Of a stretch of DNA of 64,000 bases, positions 302 through 17,297 are shown piece by piece. Within the stretch, counting starts at the first letter, position 1. Each line of letters opens with the position of its first letter. Under the pieces are notes generated by a model. That model had not been told where the DNA came from. It did not search any database and saw nothing but the letters and a program-made list of their open reading frames with translations. The stretch spans positions 62,259 through 126,258 of the forward strand of contig CALLJL010000017.1 of the NCBI GenBank assembly GCA_938092135.1, read 5' to 3'. The translations under genes and the position numbers were made by a program. The DNA is from an uncultured bacterium (GTDB lineage Bacteria; Acidobacteriota; Aminicenantia; Aminicenantales; CALLJL01).

Positions 302-838
302 TTACTTTTCTTTTTGTATAGCAAACCAGTAGATAAAAAGCTCCTTTTCTAATTCCTTATAATTTTGGAATTTCCGTTGGATTATTTTCCAGAAATTCTC
401 ATTATGTTTTTTTTCGAGGAGATGAGCTAATTCATGATATATGATGTATTTAATAAGAAAAATGGGCAATTTTTGTATTTTTGTATTTAAGGTAAGATTT
501 TTCTTCGAGCTTATGCTTGCCCATTTTGTTTTCATATTTCTCCAGAAGATTCCATTTATTCTTACGCCTAAATCATCGGATGCATCCTTAATAAGCTTAT
601 TCAAAATTTCATCAATTTCATCTTTCTTCCTTTGATACAATTCCTTTTGGTAAGATTCTTTTAGACATTCATTTATAAAGCCAAGTTTTTTCATTATCCA
701 ATTTTTATACTTTTCGACGATAACTTCAGGAGAGTAGCCAAAAGGAAGGATTAAAAGAAGCTTTCCCGTTGAAAATTCTAGCCTTGGAAATTTTATATTG
801 CGAAAGGAGACTTCGTAAGGTATTTCAGGAAGCTCCAT
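302..838 (-). CDS. DUF45/YgjP-like (M48-related) HExxH metal-dependent hydrolase
   Basis: Contains the motif YIIYHELAHLLEKKHNENFW, matching the DUF45 signature HELxHLxxxNHxxxFW. The gene overlaps the hsdR 3' end by 14 nt, an arrangement often seen downstream of hsdR. Confidence 0.7.
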   Translation of the reverse strand: MELPEIPYEVSFRNIKFPRLEFSTGKLLLILPFGYSPEVIVEKYKNWIMKKLGFINECLKESYQKELYQRKKDEIDEILNKLIKDASDDLGVRINGIFWRNMKTKWASISSKKNLTLNTKIQKLPIFLIKYIIYHELAHLLEKKHNENFWKIIQRKFQNYKELEKELFIYWFAIQKEK

Positions 839-3800
839 AGTTTTTTACGCAGTCCATTAATTTTTCATGTAAAATATCCATTTCTTTCAACGATAATCCA
901 TATGTTTTCTTAATCATTCTTACAAACTTTCTTATCTCTCGTTCTATACTCCTCCTTGCTGTCGTTTGAGCAAGCCATCCAGGAAACATTAATACTCTTA
1001 ATTTTTCCGAAAGCTCCTTTATTTTATCAACAAATTCACCTTTCTTTTCAAGATTTTTCTCGAGCGTCAGAAGGAGAGAATACTCAAGGTCTGAAAAGTT
1101 TAGTGTTTTTTGTCTATGAGAGAGAGAATAGATTTCTTCAAATATTTTTACTCCTTCCTCATATATCTTTTCATAATCCTTTATTTTCTCTTTCCACATT
1201 TTAACAAGTCTTTCGACCTTCTCAACTAGAGTTTCATAAATCGGATTCCTGTGCCTTTCGACAAGAATTAATCTGTTAAGAGTAAAAAGAATATTAGCTG
1301 ACTTCTCTTTTTTATCCTTAATTTTTTCTTCTAATTGTTTAAGATACTGTTCATCAAGAGTAATTGAAGGAAGAGAACTTGAAAGCGTCTCAATCTCAGT
1401 AGATTTGTGAATTGACTCTATTGTTGTCTTATAATATTTCTCAATTTCAGCTTCATAAATTGATTTTTGGATGACCGTTTTCATGTAATAGGTGTAAATA
1501 GCCGAGAGCCATTTAAAGGAATCTAAATACTCAATTTTAACTATGTCTGGACCAAGAAGCTCAAAGAGTTTATTGAGCTTTCTATATTTACCTACAAATT
1601 CTTTTTCAGTAATCGGAGAAGATGTAAGAATATCAATTGCGTCGACCAAAGTTTTCCTCTGATAATCCCTTTTTAAGTCTTTAAATATTTCCAGGCTTTC
1701 CTGAAGCAAGTTCACAAATTCTTGCTGAATATTTTCATAACTAAAAAGGACTCCTTCAATGTCTTCTTTGCTGTAAATTTCAATAGCTCTTTTAAATTCT
1801 TTCAATATTCCAACATAATCTATGACCAGACCAGCTTCTTTTAAATCCCTATAAGGTCTGTTTGTTCTGGCTATTGCCTGAAGCAGTCTATGCTCTTTAA
1901 GAGGCTTATCAAGATATAACACTTGAAGAATCGGAGCATCAAATCCTGTTAAAAGCATATCAGTCACTATCAATATCTTGGGATACTCCTCCTCTTTAAA
2001 TTTTCCAATAATTTCTTTTCTAATAGTTTCAATATCTTTCCCTGCGTATCTTTGTCTTGTCTCTGCCACTGCTTTTAAGAGGCTGGGCTCATCTCTTTCT
2101 CTATAGGTCATTACAACTTCACAATATTCCTTTGGAAGAAGTTTATTCAGCTCAAGGCGATAAAGTTCGCAGGCTTTTCTGCTTCCAGCTACAACCATGG
2201 CTTTGAATCTTCCAACAACATTCTCCTTAAAATGTTTAACTATATCCTCTGAAATAACCTTTATTCTATTAGGATTTTCAAGAAAAGCTTTAATAGAATT
2301 GATTTTTTTTCGCACAGATTCTTCTATTTCTTCCCGCATTTCTTCTGGGATTTCTTCAAACTCCGATTCCAAGAATGCTTCCAGTTGTTCTTTTTTCAGG
2401 TGAACTTCCCTTTCAAGTCTTGGTTGATAGACAATTTTCACGGTAAAGCCATCTTTTATAGATTCCGTTATAAAATATTTATCGAGATAAAGCTCTTCTG
2501 GTGGATAACTAAATTCGAGATAAGTGTCTCTTTCCCTTTTTGAGATGGGAGTTCCAGTGAAGGCAAAAAAGAAAGCATTTCTTAAAATTGACTTCATTTG
2601 AGCTGCAAGGGTTCCATATTGTGTCCTATGCGCTTCATCGACAAAGACAATTACATTATTTCTATTCATAATAGTTTCTTTTGTCCTCGACATCTTTTCT
2701 ATTTCTTTTCCCAAATGATTCAGCTCATTGTATCTAAACTTATGAATCAGAGTTATAAATGCTCCTCTCTTTCCTCTGTAATCATCAGATTTTAAAATCT
2801 CTTTTAATTCTTCAACCGAATTTATTTTTTCAGGTTTTATAATATCAAGGGCATTAAATTCTCCGTCCAGTTGCTCTTCAAGGTCAATCCTATCCACAAT
2901 AAAAAAAACTGTGGGGTTTTGAAGTTCCTTTAAATAATAAAGTTTGTGAAAGGCAAAAATCATTGTAAGAGTTTTCCCACTACCTTGCCAGTGCCATACT
3001 AGCCCTTTATTCTTTTCATCTTCACCAATAACATTTTTCTTCACCCTTTCAACTATTTTGCTTACGGTTCTATATTGCATATATCTTGTGACAACCTTTG
3101 TTGCCTCTCCTCGCTCAATCCTGAAAAAAAGAAAATTCCTAAATATATCCAGAAGTACTTCAGGCAGAAGAAAAGAAGAGAAAATAGAATAGGAAGGATG
3201 AATCTCTTTTCTCTTTATTTTCTCTTCATTATTCTCTGTTCTTAATTCGCCTTCTTCCATTTTCCACTCTTCGGCATTCACCTCATCTTTCCATGGAACA
3301 ACTGGAAAGTACTTGGCCACTGCTTCAACGGCAACACCAATTTGAGCATATTTGAACAATTCAGGAACTTTCTTCTCGTAATCCTTTATTTGTCTGTAAG
3401 CATTGAACCAGCTTTCAGCAACATTTGTCGGGTCTTTGCCTTCAATTATTACAAGAGGTATTCCATTTATATACAAAACTAAATCCGTTCTAATCCTTTC
3501 TCTCCCATCATAAATTGCTTGTCTTGTTATTATAAACTCGTTATTATTAATGTCATTAAAATCAAAGAGCTGAACATATTTTACTACTCTTTCTTTTTCA
3601 AACTTAACGGGGATTCCAAATTTATAAAAATTTAAAATTTTCCTGGCTCCCTCAATGCCAGTGCCGGCAAGGGTCAGTTCATTAATTGCCTTTTTTATCT
3701 CTTCATCACCGATGTTAGCTTCTTTGTTGATTCTTTCAAGGGCTCGCGATAGGTTTGGAATTAGAAGAGGCTCTTTGTAGCTTTCCCTTTCGAGGCTATC

Positions 3801-3878
3801 AGCTGGAATAAAACTCCATCCTTTCTCCTGGAGTAGGCTGGAAATGTAATCTTCAACGATTTTCTTTTCTTTAAACAT
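825..3878 (-). CDS. hsdR: Type I restriction enzyme R subunit (HsdR)
   Basis: 1017 aa. Has a Walker A motif WQGSGKTLTM, a DEAH box VDEAHRTQ and SF2 helicase motifs, and sits with the other Type I R-M genes. Confidence 0.9.
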   Translation of the reverse strand: MFKEKKIVEDYISSLLQEKGWSFIPADSLERESYKEPLLIPNLSRALERINKEANIGDEEIKKAINELTLAGTGIEGARKILNFYKFGIPVKFEKERVVKYVQLFDFNDINNNEFIITRQAIYDGRERIRTDLVLYINGIPLVIIEGKDPTNVAESWFNAYRQIKDYEKKVPELFKYAQIGVAVEAVAKYFPVVPWKDEVNAEEWKMEEGELRTENNEEKIKRKEIHPSYSIFSSFLLPEVLLDIFRNFLFFRIERGEATKVVTRYMQYRTVSKIVERVKKNVIGEDEKNKGLVWHWQGSGKTLTMIFAFHKLYYLKELQNPTVFFIVDRIDLEEQLDGEFNALDIIKPEKINSVEELKEILKSDDYRGKRGAFITLIHKFRYNELNHLGKEIEKMSRTKETIMNRNNVIVFVDEAHRTQYGTLAAQMKSILRNAFFFAFTGTPISKRERDTYLEFSYPPEELYLDKYFITESIKDGFTVKIVYQPRLEREVHLKKEQLEAFLESEFEEIPEEMREEIEESVRKKINSIKAFLENPNRIKVISEDIVKHFKENVVGRFKAMVVAGSRKACELYRLELNKLLPKEYCEVVMTYRERDEPSLLKAVAETRQRYAGKDIETIRKEIIGKFKEEEYPKILIVTDMLLTGFDAPILQVLYLDKPLKEHRLLQAIARTNRPYRDLKEAGLVIDYVGILKEFKRAIEIYSKEDIEGVLFSYENIQQEFVNLLQESLEIFKDLKRDYQRKTLVDAIDILTSSPITEKEFVGKYRKLNKLFELLGPDIVKIEYLDSFKWLSAIYTYYMKTVIQKSIYEAEIEKYYKTTIESIHKSTEIETLSSSLPSITLDEQYLKQLEEKIKDKKEKSANILFTLNRLILVERHRNPIYETLVEKVERLVKMWKEKIKDYEKIYEEGVKIFEEIYSLSHRQKTLNFSDLEYSLLLTLEKNLEKKGEFVDKIKELSEKLRVLMFPGWLAQTTARRSIEREIRKFVRMIKKTYGLSLKEMDILHEKLMDCVKNYGAS

Positions 3879-4018
3879 GATATTTTAGAGCCTGAAAAAT
3901 GAATTTCTCATCAATTCTAGTTTATTAATGACTTAATCTTTTCTACAAAAGGTTTCGCTTTCTCAAGCCATTCTTCAACTTGCTTCTTTTCGAACTCAAC
4001 GAATTCTAAATAACCTCC

Positions 4019-4372
4019 TCACTGTCTTGCTTCAAATAATCTATTATAAAATCGCCCCTCTTCTGTCCCTATAAGACCTTGTTTTATAATGTATCTATGG
4101 AAATAGGCCTTAACACCGGAATGTTTTTTAAATTTTAATCCTTTTTGGAGCAATAATGCACTCACAATATAAAAGCAGGCATAACAAATTCTGTTCACAG
4201 AGAAGGAAAGCCTGTTTGCTTTTAGCTCATCTTCTGCAGAGCAAAGGGATTCTAGGGATCTTTCTACCCAGTATTTAATAATTTCTTTCTTCTTTTTAGC
4301 ACTTTCCTTCACAAGGGAATTCCTTCCTTTTCTATAAAATAATGAATAGGAAGAGGACTTAGTTTTTCCCAC
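4019..4372 (-). CDS. HEPN-domain protein (toxin-like partner of the MNT gene)
   Basis: 117 aa. The C-terminal region (CYACFYIVSALLLQKGLKFKKHSGVKAYFHRY) resembles HEPN (PF05168). The annotated start overlaps the upstream MNT gene by 64 nt, so the true start may be a non-ATG codon further in. Confidence 0.65.
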   Translation of the reverse strand: MGKTKSSSYSLFYRKGRNSLVKESAKKKKEIIKYWVERSLESLCSAEDELKANRLSFSVNRICYACFYIVSALLLQKGLKFKKHSGVKAYFHRYIIKQGLIGTEEGRFYNRLFEARQ

Positions 4373-4677
4373 TCCTTTTTTGATAGAATAAGAGGACTTA
4401 TATTTGTGTCAAATTCAATATTTATATCAAACACTATGTCTAAAATTTGCTTCCTAATCTTTTCATTTATTTCGCCAGATAGAATTATTAAAATATCAAG
4501 ATCAGATTCTTCATCAAACTTACCTGTTACCTTTGATCCAAAAAGTTTGATCTCGGTTCCATGATATAATTTTTCAACCGCAGATTTAAGTTTATAAAGA
4601 GCTTCTTGTTCGAGCTTAGTGAAATACTTCTTAACTCTATTTCTTTGCTTCAAAATACTTTTTCTTTTTATTGTCAT
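4309..4677 (-). CDS. Minimal nucleotidyltransferase (MNT) domain protein
   Basis: Carries the motif LFGSKVTGKFDEESDLDILII, i.e. GS...DxD of PF01909. It is paired with the HEPN gene. Confidence 0.75.
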   Translation of the reverse strand: MTIKRKSILKQRNRVKKYFTKLEQEALYKLKSAVEKLYHGTEIKLFGSKVTGKFDEESDLDILIILSGEINEKIRKQILDIVFDINIEFDTNISPLILSKKEWEKLSPLPIHYFIEKEGIPL

Positions 4678-4706
4678 TGTTTTGATTTTCTTTCATCCAT
4701 TAGGCT

Positions 4707-5975
4707 TCATGTTCCACTTTTATAATCTAATTTTACCCTTCTCCTTCCTGTAAGCAAATCTTCCATTAATCCTTTCTTAACTCTTTCAAGCTTATCTTTC
4801 CTTTTTTCCAGCATCTCCAATCCCTTGTCAATAGTACTCAGGATTTCAGCAATTTTTTGTTGCTCTGGGAGAGGGGGGAGGGGGAGAGGAAACCTTTTGA
4901 GGTCATCTTTTCTAATAGCTTGAAAAGTTGAACCTCCAGAAATACTCTCAAGCTTTTTGCCTTTATACTTTAAATAATAAAATAAAAACATATAATTTGA
5001 TTTATCTGCCTTACTTCTTATTGCCGCTAAACCTCTGCCAATGCAAACCTTTGCAAGAGAAATATTAACATCTCCAACCGGAGCTCTTACCGAAATTAAA
5101 ACGTCGTTTTTTTCTGCTATTTTTATTGGTTTAGAACAGTAAATACTAGGTAATGGATAAATTTCGCCAAATTCCATCTTCCCCTGAAGAAAAGGCAGTC
5201 CTTCATTTGAAGTATTATAGGTGGAGGAAGGAGGCGACTGACCCATTATTACTTCAAAAATTTTATTGTCCCCCAACCTCACCACCTCCCACTCCTTCGG
5301 AATCTTTCCAATCTCTGTGTCTTTAAACTCCTTATGTCCTATGCCTTTGGTAAGTAGCTTCTCCATCAAGCCTTTCTTTAGCCTCTCGGTCTTCTCAATA
5401 GCCAGCTTTACCTTCTCAATTGCCAAATCCACTGTGCTCAGAATTTCAGCAATCTTTTTCTGTTTAGGAAGAGGAGGGAGGATGACCTTAAAATTTTCTA
5501 ACTGATCTTTTGATAATTCTTTAAACGTGCTTCCGCTGCTCAGGTTTTGTAATTCCTTCTTTTTATTTAAGAAATAATAACAATAGAATTTTGGAAAAAT
5601 ATTCTTTTCATCTTTTGGTATTAATCCTTTGCATCCTTGATTAAATGTGGCCCTTTCTTTAAGTATAGCAACATAACCTACTGGAGCCCTGGTTGATATT
5701 ATAATTGAATTTATTGGCATCAAAGTTAAGTTACTCTCTTTCATTGCCTTTTCGGTAATTTTTCTTTCACTTTCTTTTATTTCTATTTGCCTATTTAATT
5801 TGCTTAAATCAGATGGTGTAATCCAATTTATTGTTCCATTTTTCCAATAATCGCTATTTTTAGTTGATGGCGTCGTGCCAGTTTCAACTATAAATAAATC
5901 GTTCACTTTATGAACCTCCCAATCTTCCGGTATCTTCCCTATGTCCGTAACTTTAAAATTATGTTTTTTTTTCAC
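4707..5975 (-). CDS. hsdS: Type I restriction-modification specificity subunit (HsdS), two target-recognition domains (TRDs)
   Basis: 422 aa. Two TRDs are each followed by a conserved repeat ([18 protein letters not shown].. and [18 protein letters not shown]..), the typical HsdS architecture. Confidence 0.85.
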
Positions 5976-5987
5976 TTTATTAATCTT

Positions 5988-6977
5988 TTAGGGGAAAATT
6001 CTTAATTGTTCTTTTTCTAAAATTTCATAATTTTGCGTCATTTTATTCTTAAATTCCCATATATTCTCAAATTTCCATTCACCATTTCTGATGTTCGCTT
6101 TTGAGATTGTAAAGGCCTTGAAATGTTTTGAATATTTAAAATTTTTCCCTCTTTTAAATTTTTCTAACATTAATTTTACAGGATATGAAATTATAGCCTT
6201 TTTGTCCTCTACCCTATCACCTACACGTGGATTTTTTTGATAATAGAGTTTTGTTTCTTTGAAACAAGATTGAACCACACTTCCAAGCAGCATGTCTGCT
6301 AATTGAAGAATATTAGCGTGTTTATATTCTTCAGAACACCTAACATATTTTTTATGATCAGAATTTAAATGAACTAATTCTGCTGTATCTGGGATTTCTA
6401 CATAAGAACGAACTTTTTTTCTTAGATCATAAATTATTCTAAATTCATTTAATTTTCGATGACAAGGCTGACCGTCTGTTATTATCTTTAAAATTTTTAC
6501 CTTGTGTTTATTGTCATAAAGATAATGAAGCGTGCCCTTTAATAGCATTCTTAGTAGAGTTTCCCCAAATCTCAATTCTTTTTCCTTCCTATTTTCTCCC
6601 CCATAACTCGATATCAGATCCAATTTTGGTTCCTCATAAAATATCACTCCTAATTTGCAAAAAGTATTTTTTTGTTTAAGATATTCTACCGCTATTTGAA
6701 CTATATTTTTTTCAGCATTATTTTGCTTAGTCCACTTCTGTCCTGAAATCTCAGAAAAATGAAATTTGTGATTTGCACCGAAATTATTTCTTACTTTCTC
6801 AATGTCATCAAAAAGATCAGTTAAAGGCTTGAATGTTATTGGTGGCATGCTTAATAAATTTCCTTTTTCTCTGATGGTGATTTTAACAGGAACCAAAAAT
6901 AATACATGTCCTTTTAAATTCTGATATTTTGTTTCATCGTGATATACGATAACTTCACTATAGGTTTCTTTGTTCAT
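5988..6977 (-). CDS. DUF3800-like protein embedded in the R-M operon
   Basis: 329 aa. The N-terminal VIVYHDETKY resembles the YIDESG start of DUF3800, and the internal ILQLADMLLG resembles its QLAD motif. The assignment is tentative. Confidence 0.4.
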   Translation of the reverse strand: MNKETYSEVIVYHDETKYQNLKGHVLFLVPVKITIREKGNLLSMPPITFKPLTDLFDDIEKVRNNFGANHKFHFSEISGQKWTKQNNAEKNIVQIAVEYLKQKNTFCKLGVIFYEEPKLDLISSYGGENRKEKELRFGETLLRMLLKGTLHYLYDNKHKVKILKIITDGQPCHRKLNEFRIIYDLRKKVRSYVEIPDTAELVHLNSDHKKYVRCSEEYKHANILQLADMLLGSVVQSCFKETKLYYQKNPRVGDRVEDKKAIISYPVKLMLEKFKRGKNFKYSKHFKAFTISKANIRNGEWKFENIWEFKNKMTQNYEILEKEQLRIFP

Positions 6978-7002
6978 ATTTCTACTTCCTCTTCAGGCAC
7001 AT

Positions 7003-7296
7003 TCAAGTCTTTCTCCTTGCTCTCTTTATAATGTCGCCCTTAGAATTTATTACTCCTATTCCTGTTCCTTTAGTTACAGCCAGAGCAGTGCGAAGATTTT
7101 TATCATTGGTAGCTATATATCTTGCTTTTGAGGATCTTTTTACCTGATTTATGCCATGATATATCCCACTTTTTGTAGTCTCTACTTCGATAGCTCTATT
7201 GGGTGTCACAATATCAATCCCTCTGTGCTTTTTATACTGGACACCCAGCTTCTTCGCTATGTTTTCAGCAATTTGGTCATGTCTACTCTTGCTCAT
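7003..7296 (-). CDS. Small hypothetical protein, possibly PD-(D/E)xK-like (YraN/Hjc-like core)
   Basis: 97 aa. The stretch RGIDIVTPNRAIEVETTKSG resembles the GEIDLI...VEVK core of YraN-type nucleases. This is weak. Confidence 0.3.
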   Translation of the reverse strand: MSKSRHDQIAENIAKKLGVQYKKHRGIDIVTPNRAIEVETTKSGIYHGINQVKRSSKARYIATNDKNLRTALAVTKGTGIGVINSKGDIIKRARRKT

Positions 7297-7343
7297 GTGT
7301 TCATCATCACCTCCTTTCTATTTCCCAAAAATTAATTAGCATT

Positions 7344-7571
7344 TTATCTTTCTTCCAATTCTTCTAAATATTCCTCAATCTTTTTGTCCACATCTTCAAG
7401 TTCCTTTTCAATTAACTTAATTTCTTCCCACTCTCTCTCCACATCAATTTCTTCCCTTTCCTCCTCTGGAAATACATAAAGAGTTACATTAAGGTTGTAA
7501 TCGTTTTCTCTTATCTTTTCAGCGTCAACAATTTTGGAGAAGCCCTCTATTTCTTTAAATTCGTGATACAC
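7344..7571 (-). pseudogene. hsdM: C-terminal tail of HsdM, in frame with the upstream hsdM ORF across a TAG codon
   Basis: Translates YHEFKEIEGFSKIVDAEKIRENDYNLNVTLYV, the conserved HsdM C-terminus (ENDYNLNxxRYV). Exactly 66 nt (22 sense codons) separate it from the TAG at 7638-7640. Confidence 0.7.
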
Positions 7572-7637
7572 CTTTGAAATCTTATTTATGTGTTCATCTG
7601 CGAGCCTATTTAATTTTCTAACTTCTGGATGTTGCTC

Positions 7638-9092
7638 CTATTCTTGGCTTGCATTTATAAATAGAATCTTTCCTTTCCTTCCTTCTGGTTTGCTCTTTCT
7701 GAGAATTAAAATTGCACCAGGAGCCCCAGTATTGTAGAAAAGCTTTTCCGGAAGCAAAATAACAGCTTCTATCAAATCTTTATTAAGAATTCCTGCTCTT
7801 ATTGCTCTTTCTCTTCCACCTCTAAAAAGACATCCATTGTCGATAACAACTCCTACCCGGCCATTCTTCTCATCTGCGGAAGATAGCATGTGCTGAATCC
7901 AGGCCCAATCCGCTGACTGATTAGGAGGAAATCCATATTTAAATCTTTCCTTCCAAAATTCTCCTTTTTTCAGAGTTTCCTCTCCATATCCATCCTGATT
8001 CCAGGGAGGATTGGCTATAACAATATCAAATTCCATTATTCGGTCAGCAGATTTAAACTTAGGATAAAACAAAGTATCCCCAAGAGAAAGGTGGACATTT
8101 CTTATATCATGTATGAAAAAATTCATTTCTGCTAAAGCAAGGGTCATATGATTTGCCTCCTGCCCGTAGAGGAAAAGTTTGTTGGCTTCATCCTTTCCAT
8201 GCTTCTCCTCTACATGTTTGTAAGCACCAATGAGCATACCGCCAGAACCCATTGCTAGGTCATAAACTTTCTCATTGGGTTTCGGGTCAAGAATTTTAAC
8301 AAGAAGCTTTATATCTTCCCGAGGAGTATAAACCTCGCCCTCTTTGGCCTTCTGAGGAGCAAAATATCTCAAAATCCATTCGTAGGCATCGCCAAGAAGG
8401 TCAGCAGAGACATGATGAAGGGGTTTAGCGCTAAAGAGCTCCACAAGCTGGCGCAATATTTCTGCATTTTCTCGGCTCACTGCGAATTGAATAAAGTCCA
8501 CATTTTCAAATACATCTTTAAGGTCAGGATTTCTTTCAGCAAGAATTTTCATAGCCTTAGAGAAATTCTCTGGTAACCTTGCAGGGTCTCTTCTTATATT
8601 TTCCCAGAGAAGTTCTGGTTCAATATCAAAATCATGATATAAAGATTTGCTGGCTTCTTCTCGCGCCTCTTCCTCAGATAGTCCATCAGAAATTGCTTCG
8701 TTGTATGCGGATTCAAACTCAATCTCCCATTTGTCACTTATTCTTTTGTAGAAAAGAAGAAAGAGAATGAAAGTATAATCAACCCTGGTTCTTATAAGAT
8801 CGGCAGCTCTTTTCAAAAGAGCTTCAAGCTCGCCTCTTGTAAGTTCACTTTCACCAATGGCAAGGAATTGCGATATTATTTTTTCACTCCTTTCAAGGGT
8901 ATATATCCTTTTTCTCGCATCCTCAGGGTCAAATTCAGCTCTGAGCCACCCTTTCTTTCTTAATTCAGAAAGAATTACATTCATCTGTTCTTCGCTGTCT
9001 TCAAAATCTCTTTTGAGGACATTAAAGGCATCTTCAAATCTAAAAGGAGAATCTTCATATTCTGTCCATAATGCCATGTACCTTTTCTCCAA
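7638..9092 (-). CDS. hsdM: Type I R-M DNA methyltransferase subunit (HsdM), truncated by an in-frame TAG
   Basis: 484 aa. Has the N6-adenine methyltransferase motifs DLAMGSGGML (motif I) and VIANPPW (motif IV). It ends ...ILFINASQE and then hits TAG. Confidence 0.85.
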   Translation of the reverse strand: MEKRYMALWTEYEDSPFRFEDAFNVLKRDFEDSEEQMNVILSELRKKGWLRAEFDPEDARKRIYTLERSEKIISQFLAIGESELTRGELEALLKRAADLIRTRVDYTFILFLLFYKRISDKWEIEFESAYNEAISDGLSEEEAREEASKSLYHDFDIEPELLWENIRRDPARLPENFSKAMKILAERNPDLKDVFENVDFIQFAVSRENAEILRQLVELFSAKPLHHVSADLLGDAYEWILRYFAPQKAKEGEVYTPREDIKLLVKILDPKPNEKVYDLAMGSGGMLIGAYKHVEEKHGKDEANKLFLYGQEANHMTLALAEMNFFIHDIRNVHLSLGDTLFYPKFKSADRIMEFDIVIANPPWNQDGYGEETLKKGEFWKERFKYGFPPNQSADWAWIQHMLSSADEKNGRVGVVIDNGCLFRGGRERAIRAGILNKDLIEAVILLPEKLFYNTGAPGAILILRKSKPEGRKGKILFINASQE

Positions 9093-15152: not shown

Positions 15153-16832
15153 TCATTCTTCTAATTTCTCAGAGCCAAATATTTCGGGACACACAGCATA
15201 CCCATCGCCTTCAACCAAAGCTCGATAGGCCCTTTCAATTCTATCCCAGTTCTTTTCCCGATCAAGGGACCAATACCTTCCCATAACAGTCACTAACTCG
15301 CCGCAATTTAACTCTTTCGTCTTTTCCTGCACCTTCTTCATGTAATGAATCCCACTTTCAGGTCTTTCCCCCCGGCGGCCGATAAAAGCATGGATATAAA
15401 CCTTTTTTAAATCCTGGGCGCGGGCCATTTCCAAAAGACCAAAAAGATGGCGGATAGTGCCATGGGAACTATAATGGGAAACAATGCCCATTAGATGAAG
15501 AGAGTGGTTGGAAAGAAGGGCCCGGCTCATGGCCTCGAGGAGAATTTCATTCTTAAAGAAACTCCCATCAGCCAGGCTATGGTCTATTCTTACTCGGTCA
15601 AGCCATAAACGGCGACCTGCCCCAAGATGAAGATGGCCAGCTTCGGAGTTACCCACTGTCCCAGGCGGCAGGCCCACCGCTTCTCCTGAAGCTTCAAGCA
15701 GAGAATGGGGAAAGGTGAACCATAAGAAATCAAAATTGGGGGTTAAAGCTTCGGTGATTAGATTGCCATAGGTATTTTCTCGGATTCCCCAGCCATCAAG
15801 AATTAATAGAACTAAAGGAGCTTGAGAAAAGGAATTTCGATTATAAAAATTGGAAATTCTTTCCTTTTTTTCTGAAGGAACATTTCGAGGAGGGTTGAGA
15901 ATAAGACTCTTCCCGGTCATCTCTTCAGGTTTAGGGAGACCAAGAAGCTCAAGGACGGTTGGCGCTACATCGGCCAGTTCACCCCTTTCTTTTAATTTAA
16001 TTTTTGTTGCCTCTTTAAAACGAAAATCGCCTAAAATGAAAGGGACAGGATTTTTAGTATGGCCAGTATTTATGGCTCCCTCTGGATAGAGCCATTCTTC
16101 TACGGTTCCATGGTCAGCGGTAACAATTAAACAGACTTGGGCCTGCGAACAGGCAGTCACTATTTTGCCTAAACAGCTATCTACTTTCTCCACGGCTCTA
16201 ATCACCGCCTCTTTATTTTCATAATGGCCGATGACATCCACGTTGGCCAGATTAGCGATAATTAAATGGTGGCTTCTCTCTTTTATTCTCCTTATGACCT
16301 CCTGGGAGATTTCTTCAGCCTTCATTTCGGGTTCATTTTCATGGGAATCAAGGGTTGAAGAAGGAATGATGATTCTTTCTTCCCCGGGAAAAGTGGCCTC
16401 TCTTTTTCCATTGAGGAAAAAACCAAGATGGGCTGCCTTTTCTGATTCAGTTATCTTAACAACTCTTAAACCATGGCGGCAGACAGTTTCGACTAAGGTA
16501 TTTCTCAGCTCAACCTCATTCGGAAAGGCTACTTTGACCTTTAGGGATGGAGCATAAGCCACGAGCGTGACAAAAAATAGCTTAGGAAATTTTCTTCTCT
16601 GGAAATGAGGGAAATCCTCTTCAGTCAGGCTCTGGGTTAGTTCTATTTCTCTTTCTCCTCTAAGATCGTAAAAAATGACGGAATCCCCATCTTCCAGACG
16701 ACCGACTGGCTGATAATAGGAATTATATCTGATAATCGGCTCCAGGGTTTCATCACCCTGCCCTTTCTGATAAAGAGTTCTGATGGCCGCAGTAAAACTG
16801 GGGAAAAATTTTTTTTCAGCCAAGGAGATCAC
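15153..16832 (-). CDS. gpmI: 2,3-bisphosphoglycerate-independent phosphoglycerate mutase (iPGM), apparently circularly permuted
   Basis: Residues 1-~310 match the canonical iPGM C-terminal half (ESEKAAHLGFF, ANLANVDVIGH, TADHGTVEE, NPVPFI, MTGKSL). Residues ~335-559 match the canonical N-terminal half (LILDGWG, ASGEAVGLPPGTVGNSEAGH, HLMGIVSHYSSHG, IHAFIGRRGERP, GRYWSLDREKNWDRIERAY). Confidence 0.8.
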   Translation of the reverse strand: MISLAEKKFFPSFTAAIRTLYQKGQGDETLEPIIRYNSYYQPVGRLEDGDSVIFYDLRGEREIELTQSLTEEDFPHFQRRKFPKLFFVTLVAYAPSLKVKVAFPNEVELRNTLVETVCRHGLRVVKITESEKAAHLGFFLNGKREATFPGEERIIIPSSTLDSHENEPEMKAEEISQEVIRRIKERSHHLIIANLANVDVIGHYENKEAVIRAVEKVDSCLGKIVTACSQAQVCLIVTADHGTVEEWLYPEGAINTGHTKNPVPFILGDFRFKEATKIKLKERGELADVAPTVLELLGLPKPEEMTGKSLILNPPRNVPSEKKERISNFYNRNSFSQAPLVLLILDGWGIRENTYGNLITEALTPNFDFLWFTFPHSLLEASGEAVGLPPGTVGNSEAGHLHLGAGRRLWLDRVRIDHSLADGSFFKNEILLEAMSRALLSNHSLHLMGIVSHYSSHGTIRHLFGLLEMARAQDLKKVYIHAFIGRRGERPESGIHYMKKVQEKTKELNCGELVTVMGRYWSLDREKNWDRIERAYRALVEGDGYAVCPEIFGSEKLEE

Positions 16833-16946
16833 TTTTTATTTCCTAGTTCCTTTCAATTTTTCTTGAAATAATTATTATAATCAAATCATTTTTTTGGCCA
16901 AAATTTAAAGTAGCCTTTCTAATCTGTTTAGGATTAAAATAATTAT

Positions 16947-17297
16947 ATGAAAGAAAATATCCATCTTTCTTCAGGTTTTTGGGTAATGTTAGCCTTTTTC
17001 TTCCTCGCTTTCTGGCTTGTTTCTCCTTTTATTAAAATTGATTCGTCTGATTATGAACACGCCCAAAGAAACATGTATCGTCTTTTTTTTGGCCTCTTCA
17101 TTTTAATTATTGAGCTAGGCATTCTATCTTTCGAAACCTTTTCACCTCAAGGATTCGCCCGAAAAGTCTCCAACATGAGAGCTGTCGCTGTCTTTGTCTT
17201 TGGTCTTCTTCTTCTTGCCTTCATTATTTTTATTGTCGCTCAATCGGCCGTTATCTATTTAAGAACCGGTCTAAATCAAATCGAATCTCCCTATTAA
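16947..17297 (+). CDS. Small integral membrane protein, function unknown
   Basis: Three to four hydrophobic helices. Confidence 0.35.
   Translation: MKENIHLSSGFWVMLAFFFLAFWLVSPFIKIDSSDYEHAQRNMYRLFFGLFILIIELGILSFETFSPQGFARKVSNMRAVAVFVFGLLLLAFIIFIVAQSAVIYLRTGLNQIESPY

Follow-up and report, generated by a model that had tools for sequence, protein, structure and literature searches.

A circularly permuted enzyme of the cofactor-independent phosphoglycerate mutase family, conserved in sequence order and break point across bacterial genomes

Can the two halves of a central metabolic enzyme be exchanged in nature, and what becomes of the enzyme when they are? The question is raised by a 64,000-nucleotide stretch of DNA (the window) from an uncultured bacterium of the Aminicenantales (GenBank assembly GCA_938092135.1, contig CALLJL010000017.1, positions 62,259 to 126,258), in which a sequence-only reading had proposed a gene for a circularly permuted cofactor-independent phosphoglycerate mutase (iPGM). 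The product of this gene (the query) is a clean circular permutation of iPGM, with support far above chance, and the proposal, including the linkage of the native termini, is fully supported and extends to a whole family of proteins.

The gene is a complete open reading frame (ORF) on the minus strand of the window at 15153..16832, exactly where the earlier reading had placed a single ORF, and encodes 559 amino acids from a GTG start. When the query was compared with the Protein Data Bank (PDB) by phmmer, residues 17-312 matched residues 220-510 of the reference 1EJJ (G. stearothermophilus iPGM; 231 bits, independent E-value 2e-67) and residues 336-545 matched residues 2-211 (217 bits, independent E-value 5e-63). 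Both blocks were collinear with the reference and stood in reversed order, reference residue 510 leading through a linker to reference residue 2, and a tblastn search of the window with the two halves of 1EJJ gave the identical swapped order. The iPGM profile TIGR01307 scored 498.2 bits against a cutoff of 330.65 in two separate segments, and PF01676 (Metalloenzyme, 217.8) and PF06415 (iPGM_N, 183.5) were far over their cutoffs, each again in two segments. Along the chain we found the motifs ESEKAAHLGFF (129-139), NLANVDVIGH (194-203), TADHG (237-241) and MTGKSL (305-310), followed by LILDGWG (343-349), GNSEAGH (394-400), HLMGIVSHYSSHG (446-458) and GRYWSLDREKNWDR (518-531). The order is thus transferase second half, hinge, phosphatase C-terminal part, linker, phosphatase N-terminal part, hinge, transferase first half, in place of the canonical linear order of phosphatase N-terminal part, transferase, phosphatase C-terminal part. 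No second iPGM or ApgM-like gene was found within the 64-kb window, and an Rfam search of the window at the gathering threshold returned zero matches.

The position of the break determines how the two domains are connected. The transferase profile PF06415 (217 profile positions) was itself cut: positions 1-129 matched query residues 416-544, and the remainder matched the query N-terminus. In Caenorhabditis elegans iPGM the phosphatase domain comprises residues 27-95 and 339-538 and the transferase domain residues 96-338 (PMC8113725), and the metal ligands are D37, S86, D426, H430, D467, H468 and H485 (PMC5382265). From these ligand positions, the C. elegans numbering is offset by about +23 to +25 relative to 1EJJ, and the break at 1EJJ ~211-219 therefore sits in the middle of the transferase domain. 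The AF2 model of the query showed a confident two-domain iPGM fold, with a short strand (query 545-547) on one side of the break and a helix (query 13-22) on the other. The phosphatase domain of the permutant is contiguous (query ~107-410, the linker being its sole interruption) and the transferase domain is assembled from both chain ends, so that the canonical insertion of transferase into phosphatase is inverted and the phosphatase lies inside a split transferase domain. Both inter-domain hinges are retained, and the open/closed domain motion should therefore be preserved.

These alignments also refine the sequence-only reading. It had assigned the first ~310 residues to the C-terminal phosphatase segment of iPGM; the match to 1EJJ 220-510 bears out the location, but about 90 of these residues are the second half of the transferase. 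The last ~225 residues, which it had assigned to the canonical N-terminus plus the transferase insert, contain the match of query 336-545 to 1EJJ 2-211, the linker it had put at ~25 residues was located at about 313-335, and the motifs it quoted were found in the query, except DGRD. It had placed the new termini in the loop between transferase and phosphatase, which the break inside the transferase domain contradicts. The possibility it had left open, that the order was canonical after all, is answered by the swapped order of both halves against 1EJJ.

Read from the new N-terminus, residues 1-16 (16785..16832, minus strand, as for all segments of the gene) form a variable head, with residues 1-5 below a pLDDT of 50 in the AF2 model. 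Residues 17-106 (16515..16784) are the second half of the transferase (1EJJ 220 to ~310) and carry R58 and R61 (R261 and R264 of 1EJJ) within a clade-specific RGERE. Residues 107-312 (15897..16514) are the C-terminal part of the alkaline-phosphatase-like phosphatase domain (1EJJ ~311-510), with K132 (K336), D199 and H203 (D403 and H407), D240 and H241 (D444 and H445) and H258 (H462). The linker from the old C-terminus to the old N-terminus covers residues 313-335 (15828..15896); it is ~16 residues above the family mode, and residues 316-336 have a pLDDT below 50. The N-terminal part of the phosphatase follows at residues 336-410 (15603..15827; 1EJJ 2-76), with D346 (D12), the nucleophile S396 (S62) and H400 (H66). 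Residues 411-545 (15198..15602; 1EJJ 77-211) are the first half of the transferase and contain H457 (H123, in SSHG), R487 (R153, in GRRG, where G488 replaces D154), R519 (R185) and R525 (R191). Residues 546-559 and the stop codon (15153..15197) make up a poorly conserved new C-terminal tail. A possible Shine-Dalgarno sequence, AGGAAA (16839..16844, minus strand), ends 6 nt upstream of the GTG, its AGGA core lying at -12 to -9.

The permuted order was not confined to this contig. A search of 5.8 billion proteins clustered at 90% identity returned at least 120 homolog clusters, of which the best 120 were analyzed. These clusters, from NCBI, JGI, ENA and Logan assemblies, were 56-100% identical to the query and 522-572 aa long; every one covered at least 94% of the query in a single local alignment, and explicit mapping of both halves gave the permuted order in 120/120. 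A GTDB scan with one genome per species returned 80 loci, comprising 53 permuted loci with the same break, 26 canonical loci and 1 partial locus. The permuted loci, among them a complete chromosome and a strain record without a metagenome-assembled genome (MAG) label, carried titles from Aminicenantes/Aminicenantia, Chloroflexi/Anaerolineae/Thermoflexia, Syntrophus/Syntrophales/Smithellaceae, Thermoanaerobaculaceae, Omnitrophota, Cloacimonadota, Sphaerochaetaceae and many Clostridia, including Butyricicoccus pullicaecorum strain ET57 (without a MAG label); some of the MAG titles probably carry a wrong label. When 1.84 billion representatives at 50% identity were searched exhaustively, permuted proteins made up 12 of the best 150, all with the identical cut.

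The sequences were un-permuted computationally and aligned to 1EJJ for comparison of the active sites. In all 120 homologs the ligands of the binuclear metal site (D12, S62, D444 and H445; D403, H407 and H462), among them the nucleophile S62, were invariant, as were the basic substrate residues H123, R153, R185, R191, R261, R264 and K336, and H66. Such conservation of catalytic positions among homologs 56-100% identical to the query indicates strong purifying selection.

Could the swapped order have been produced by assembly or binning, through a chimeric junction or the collapse of a tandem duplication, and be peculiar to this contig? The 120 independent clusters and the 53 GTDB species genomes share order and break, each as an uninterrupted ORF. 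The surroundings of the gene are also kept: a 70%-identical homolog in a 'Candidatus Aminicenantes' MAG (L084) has the gene order of the window in common, namely pnp, Kdo transferase, PAP2, M23 peptidase, a small membrane-protein gene, the permuted gene and ABC-2 transporter genes, and the small neighbour, at 82% identity between the two, is better conserved than the permuted iPGM. The names of homologs and this synteny make an Aminicenantes-type bacterium the most likely source of the window. The same order and break in independent assemblies, together with the conserved synteny, refute the artefact scenario, which the sequence-only reading had itself listed as grounds for refutation, in favor of which nothing was found and which we now regard as virtually impossible. 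It is hardly more credible, and in our view extremely improbable, that the gene is a functionless pseudogene decaying from a tandem gpmI duplication. Tandem gpmI pairs do exist, and in one of them (L039) the first copy is broken; but the ORF studied here is intact and full length, its fold is predicted with confidence, and 16 catalytic positions are conserved throughout the homologs.

The small neighbour is itself of note: the window ORF at 16947-17297 (plus strand) encodes a predicted membrane protein of 116 aa. It has the M23 peptidase gene on one side and the permuted iPGM on the other, and lies on the strand opposite to the latter. Its homolog occupies the same position at L084 4529-4885, where no Pfam family is on record for it.

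How are the permuted proteins related? In neighbor-joining (NJ) trees built on un-permuted alignments, 63 permuted sequences (the query family, all 52 permuted GTDB loci included in the tree and SSHG-type representatives) formed one clade, with bootstrap values of 200/200 and 100/100. The clade has two main subfamilies. Subfamily I, which includes the query, combines GRRG with [HF][YF]SSHG, and its loci are labelled Aminicenantes, Anaerolineae, Syntrophales, Thermoanaerobaculaceae, Omnitrophota and Cloacimonadota. Subfamily II combines DGRS with KSSHG in loci labelled Clostridia/Oscillospiraceae (including Butyricicoccus pullicaecorum), Anaerolineae and Sphaerochaetaceae. It shares with the query the monophyletic clade, the break, SSHG and the loss of Asp154, but differs in that Asp154 is replaced by Ser rather than Gly, Asp151 and Gly152 are kept, its loci are of the sugar-utilization type and its identity to the query is 35-41%. 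Outside the clade stand permuted proteins with canonical DGRD and GVHS and 0/5 clade-diagnostic residues: the P0165/P0396 family, P0174, P0162 and P0275. The P0165/P0396 family (GCA_040960375.1) is small, its members being 83-85% identical on contigs of up to 512 kb; it resembles the query in break point and domain order, and departs from it in its canonical motifs, ~40% identity and an operon overlapping pgi. P0174 is an orphan permuted protein found on 2 contigs. Monophyly of all permuted sequences was recovered in 3/200 NJ bootstraps of one dataset; with a denser dataset the point-estimate tree showed it, yet 0/100 bootstraps did.

Three unusual members were noted in passing. P0275 is a 5027-aa Ala/Leu/Arg-rich protein with a complete permuted iPGM module at residues 3859-4371, near its C-terminal quarter; its composition suggests a high-GC source, and it may be a true fusion of giant size or the product of read-through in gene calling. 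The second, at L031 10016-11548, comes from another Aminicenantes MAG (MFD10007.bin.2.27): this divergent (~41%) permuted iPGM is split across reading frames, its first part fused to a 1069-aa stop-free stretch, and is either a pseudogene or the result of an assembly indel error. For cluster P0061 the source given is Candidatus Desulfaltia (Desulfobacterales), which suggests lateral transfer or a binning error.

A plausible route to the permutation would be tandem duplication of gpmI, in-frame head-to-tail fusion and later removal of the outermost N- and C-terminal parts. If one stop codon between abutting copies were lost, this would yield an N-C-N-C fusion, and trimming of both ends would leave the C-N order. 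Arrangements of the first kind were found at five GTDB loci, where two canonical iPGM genes lie head to tail downstream of enolase (eno-gpmI-gpmI): L030 1151-5664, L036 8083-12493, L047 8637-13147, L039 1889-5070 and L050 1-3057. By their titles these are Falkowbacteria and Buchananbacteria MAGs, an unclassified bacterium and two MAGs entered as 'uncultured Gammaproteobacteria bacterium', a label that may be wrong. The gap between the copies was 0 nt in L030 and L036 and 3 nt in L047. The copies of a pair were 41-51% identical to each other, and both had all catalytic residues; in L039 the first copy was split into two ORFs. The length of the junction fits such an origin. The spacing from MTGxSL to xDGxG was 13-20 residues (mode 18) in most permutants, which approximates the sum of the canonical C-tail (2-5 residues) and N-tail (2-12 residues) and is consistent with direct fusion; the query has a spacing of 34, its extra linker length being a lineage-specific disordered insertion. 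Against this route, the NJ tree did not place the tandem pairs as sisters of the permuted clade, and they therefore illustrate the route without proving it. No ORF with the fused N-C-N-C arrangement was found among the sequences searched.

What does the protein do? We consider it likely, judging from the conserved residues, that the query is a functional permuted iPGM that most probably still interconverts 3-phosphoglycerate (3-PGA) and 2-phosphoglycerate (2-PGA). As in iPGM, the phosphoryl group would pass from the substrate to Ser396 at the metal site, the glycerate would reorient on the transferase domain before receiving the phosphoryl group back, the most likely reaction being 3-PGA to 2-PGA interconversion. 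Permuted topology is evidently compatible with a glycolytic role: the gene for permuted P0396, which has canonical motifs, overlaps the upstream glucose-6-phosphate isomerase gene (pgi) by 8 nt.

Several observations weigh against a simple assignment as a glycolytic mutase. The query missed the stricter equivalog NF003897, with 402 bits against 862. DGRD (151-154) has become GRRG, and Asp154, which presumably contacts the glycerate moiety, is Gly. Among the sequences collected here DGRD occurred in 313 of 317 canonical-order proteins, whereas Asp154 was absent from 129 of 134 permuted proteins and was replaced in all 63 clade members (by GRRG or DGRS). Five more columns were clade-diagnostic (at least 85% in the clade and at most 5% in canonical proteins), namely V122S, P262G, D263E, A265E and M404V, and all adjoin H123, R261/R264 or D403, the pattern expected of a change in specificity. 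The active-site shell is thus remodelled, to judge from the alignments, while the first-shell catalytic residues are kept; the sequence-only reading, which had listed a DGRD equivalent, overlooked both the loss of Asp151 and Asp154 and this clade-wide remodelling. The genomic context points in the same direction. At 15 subfamily II loci, the permuted gene has 1-3 HAD-hydrolase paralogs upstream of it on the same strand. Often it has a divergent LacI regulator at its side and, downstream, either a PRK/uridine-kinase-family protein or an ApgM-like mutase (PF10143), and MFS transporters, xylose-isomerase-like TIM barrels, UxaE and RpiR occur near these genes. This context is one of carbohydrate (sugar or sugar-acid) utilization and not of glycolysis. 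For subfamily I, no glycolytic neighbours were found among 106 flanking genes.

It is thus conceivable, though on balance doubtful, that the Asp154-less clade including the query has been neofunctionalized, acting as a metal-dependent phosphomutase or phosphatase on another phosphorylated sugar acid or related substrate instead of as glycolytic phosphoglycerate mutase (PGM). The near-universal aspartate lost throughout the clade, the substitutions beside catalytic and substrate residues and the subfamily II operons all favor it, as does the occurrence of both canonical and permuted genes within Oscillospiraceae and Oscillibacter genomes. Set against this are the invariance of the remaining substrate-binding Arg, Lys and His residues and of the entire metal site, the passing of the TIGR01307 cutoff, and the absence of a catabolic-operon context in the query subfamily, which sits among housekeeping genes with conserved synteny. 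Moreover, permutation itself implies no new function, as one permuted family in a pgi operon shows by its unaltered active site. A compound version is rather unlikely: that the Asp154-less clade is not a glycolytic PGM but a new metal-dependent phosphomutase of another phosphorylated acid or sugar, an activity enabled by permutation because both chain ends now belong to the transferase domain, where substrate is bound, and that the same break was also fixed independently more than once. We therefore favor 3-PGA/2-PGA activity for the query as likely, not certain, since the catalytic residues are kept while Asp154 is lost and its surroundings are substituted; with these changes flanking H123, R261/R264 and D403, substrate preference or kinetics may differ.

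Further context was observed around these genes. The conserved arrangement of the DGRS-type genes lies at about 6-16 kb in each of L028, L029, L032, L034, L035, L037, L045, L049, L051 and L053, with tagaturonate epimerase UxaE in L053, and these loci may encode an uncharacterized sugar or sugar-acid phosphate pathway. Synteny in subfamily I is lineage-specific only, with ABC-2 transporter and M23 peptidase genes, and PCMT in Syntrophales-labelled loci. In E. coli the gene after gpmM is envC, of the M23/LytM type, a weak parallel to the M23-iPGM pairing here, as the gene order differs. In Anaerolineae, a ~210-aa His_Phos_1 protein with an unusual 'RHA' motif is encoded directly after the permuted iPGM on the same strand (L010 11545-12171 and L043 835-1491); these neighbours were considered as informative cofactor-dependent phosphoglycerate mutases and rejected, being small 'RHA'-motif proteins and not typical members of that family.

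The query can be placed among known systems. Canonical GpmI/GpmM enzymes (TIGR01307; PDB 1EJJ, 1O98 and 2IFY) share with it about 42-47% identity across both halves, two domains, the binuclear metal ligands, the Ser nucleophile, the Arg/Lys/His substrate residues and two inter-domain hinges. They differ in lacking the permutation at 1EJJ ~211-219 and the changes of DGRD to GRRG, GVHS to SSHG, RPDRA to RGERE and DM to DV. The archaeal-type ApgM (PF10143, TIGR00306) has the same metal-binding core of the alkaline phosphatase superfamily but a different inserted domain. An identification of the query as ApgM was rejected, with 33.7 bits for TIGR00306 against a cutoff of 320 and no PF10143 match. 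Duplication followed by truncation is the presumed origin of other natural circular permutants, such as DNA methyltransferases, transaldolases and swaposins; like these, the query has swapped collinear halves, fused native termini and tandem genes as plausible intermediates. Unlike them, it is a two-domain enzyme of central metabolism in which inserted and host domain have exchanged roles.

Full-text literature searches, with subscription-only literature outside their scope, found no description of circular permutation in phosphoglycerate mutase or iPGM, in agreement with the sequence-only reading. A survey of bacterial PGM evolution in 702 genomes does not mention permutation and calls iPGM paralogs rare (PMC2964296). 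NCBIfam holds no dedicated model for permuted iPGM, the best matches being canonical equivalogs in two pieces. Among the best 120 clusters, 6 of the 8 members named by NCBI are called 'alkaline phosphatase family protein' or 'sulfatase-like hydrolase/transferase'; JGI names permuted members 2,3-bisphosphoglycerate-independent phosphoglycerate mutase.

Elsewhere in the window, a type I restriction-modification system occupies 825-9092 on the minus strand, with hsdR at 825-3878, hsdS at 4707-5975, an unannotated 329-aa ORF at 5988-6977 and hsdM at 7638-9092. The GC content of this region is 0.32-0.35 against ~0.41 elsewhere, and both GC and AT skew are strongly negative, so that this island was probably gained by horizontal transfer.

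Natural circular permutations have been recorded in other protein families; here a core glycolytic enzyme is concerned, the permuted form is widespread, its insertion topology is inverted and its origin is possibly recurrent. Because NCBI names for the family are often generic, the PGM step may be counted as absent when metabolism is reconstructed from the genomes of Aminicenantes, Anaerolineae, Syntrophales and others. A natural permutation in a two-domain enzyme of central metabolism provides a test case for how domain-closure enzymes tolerate altered chain connectivity. The permutant is also useful for the engineering of iPGM, which in nematodes and trypanosomatids is a drug target. The loss of Asp154, together with the sugar operons of the sister subfamily, points to a possible new specificity in the iPGM fold.

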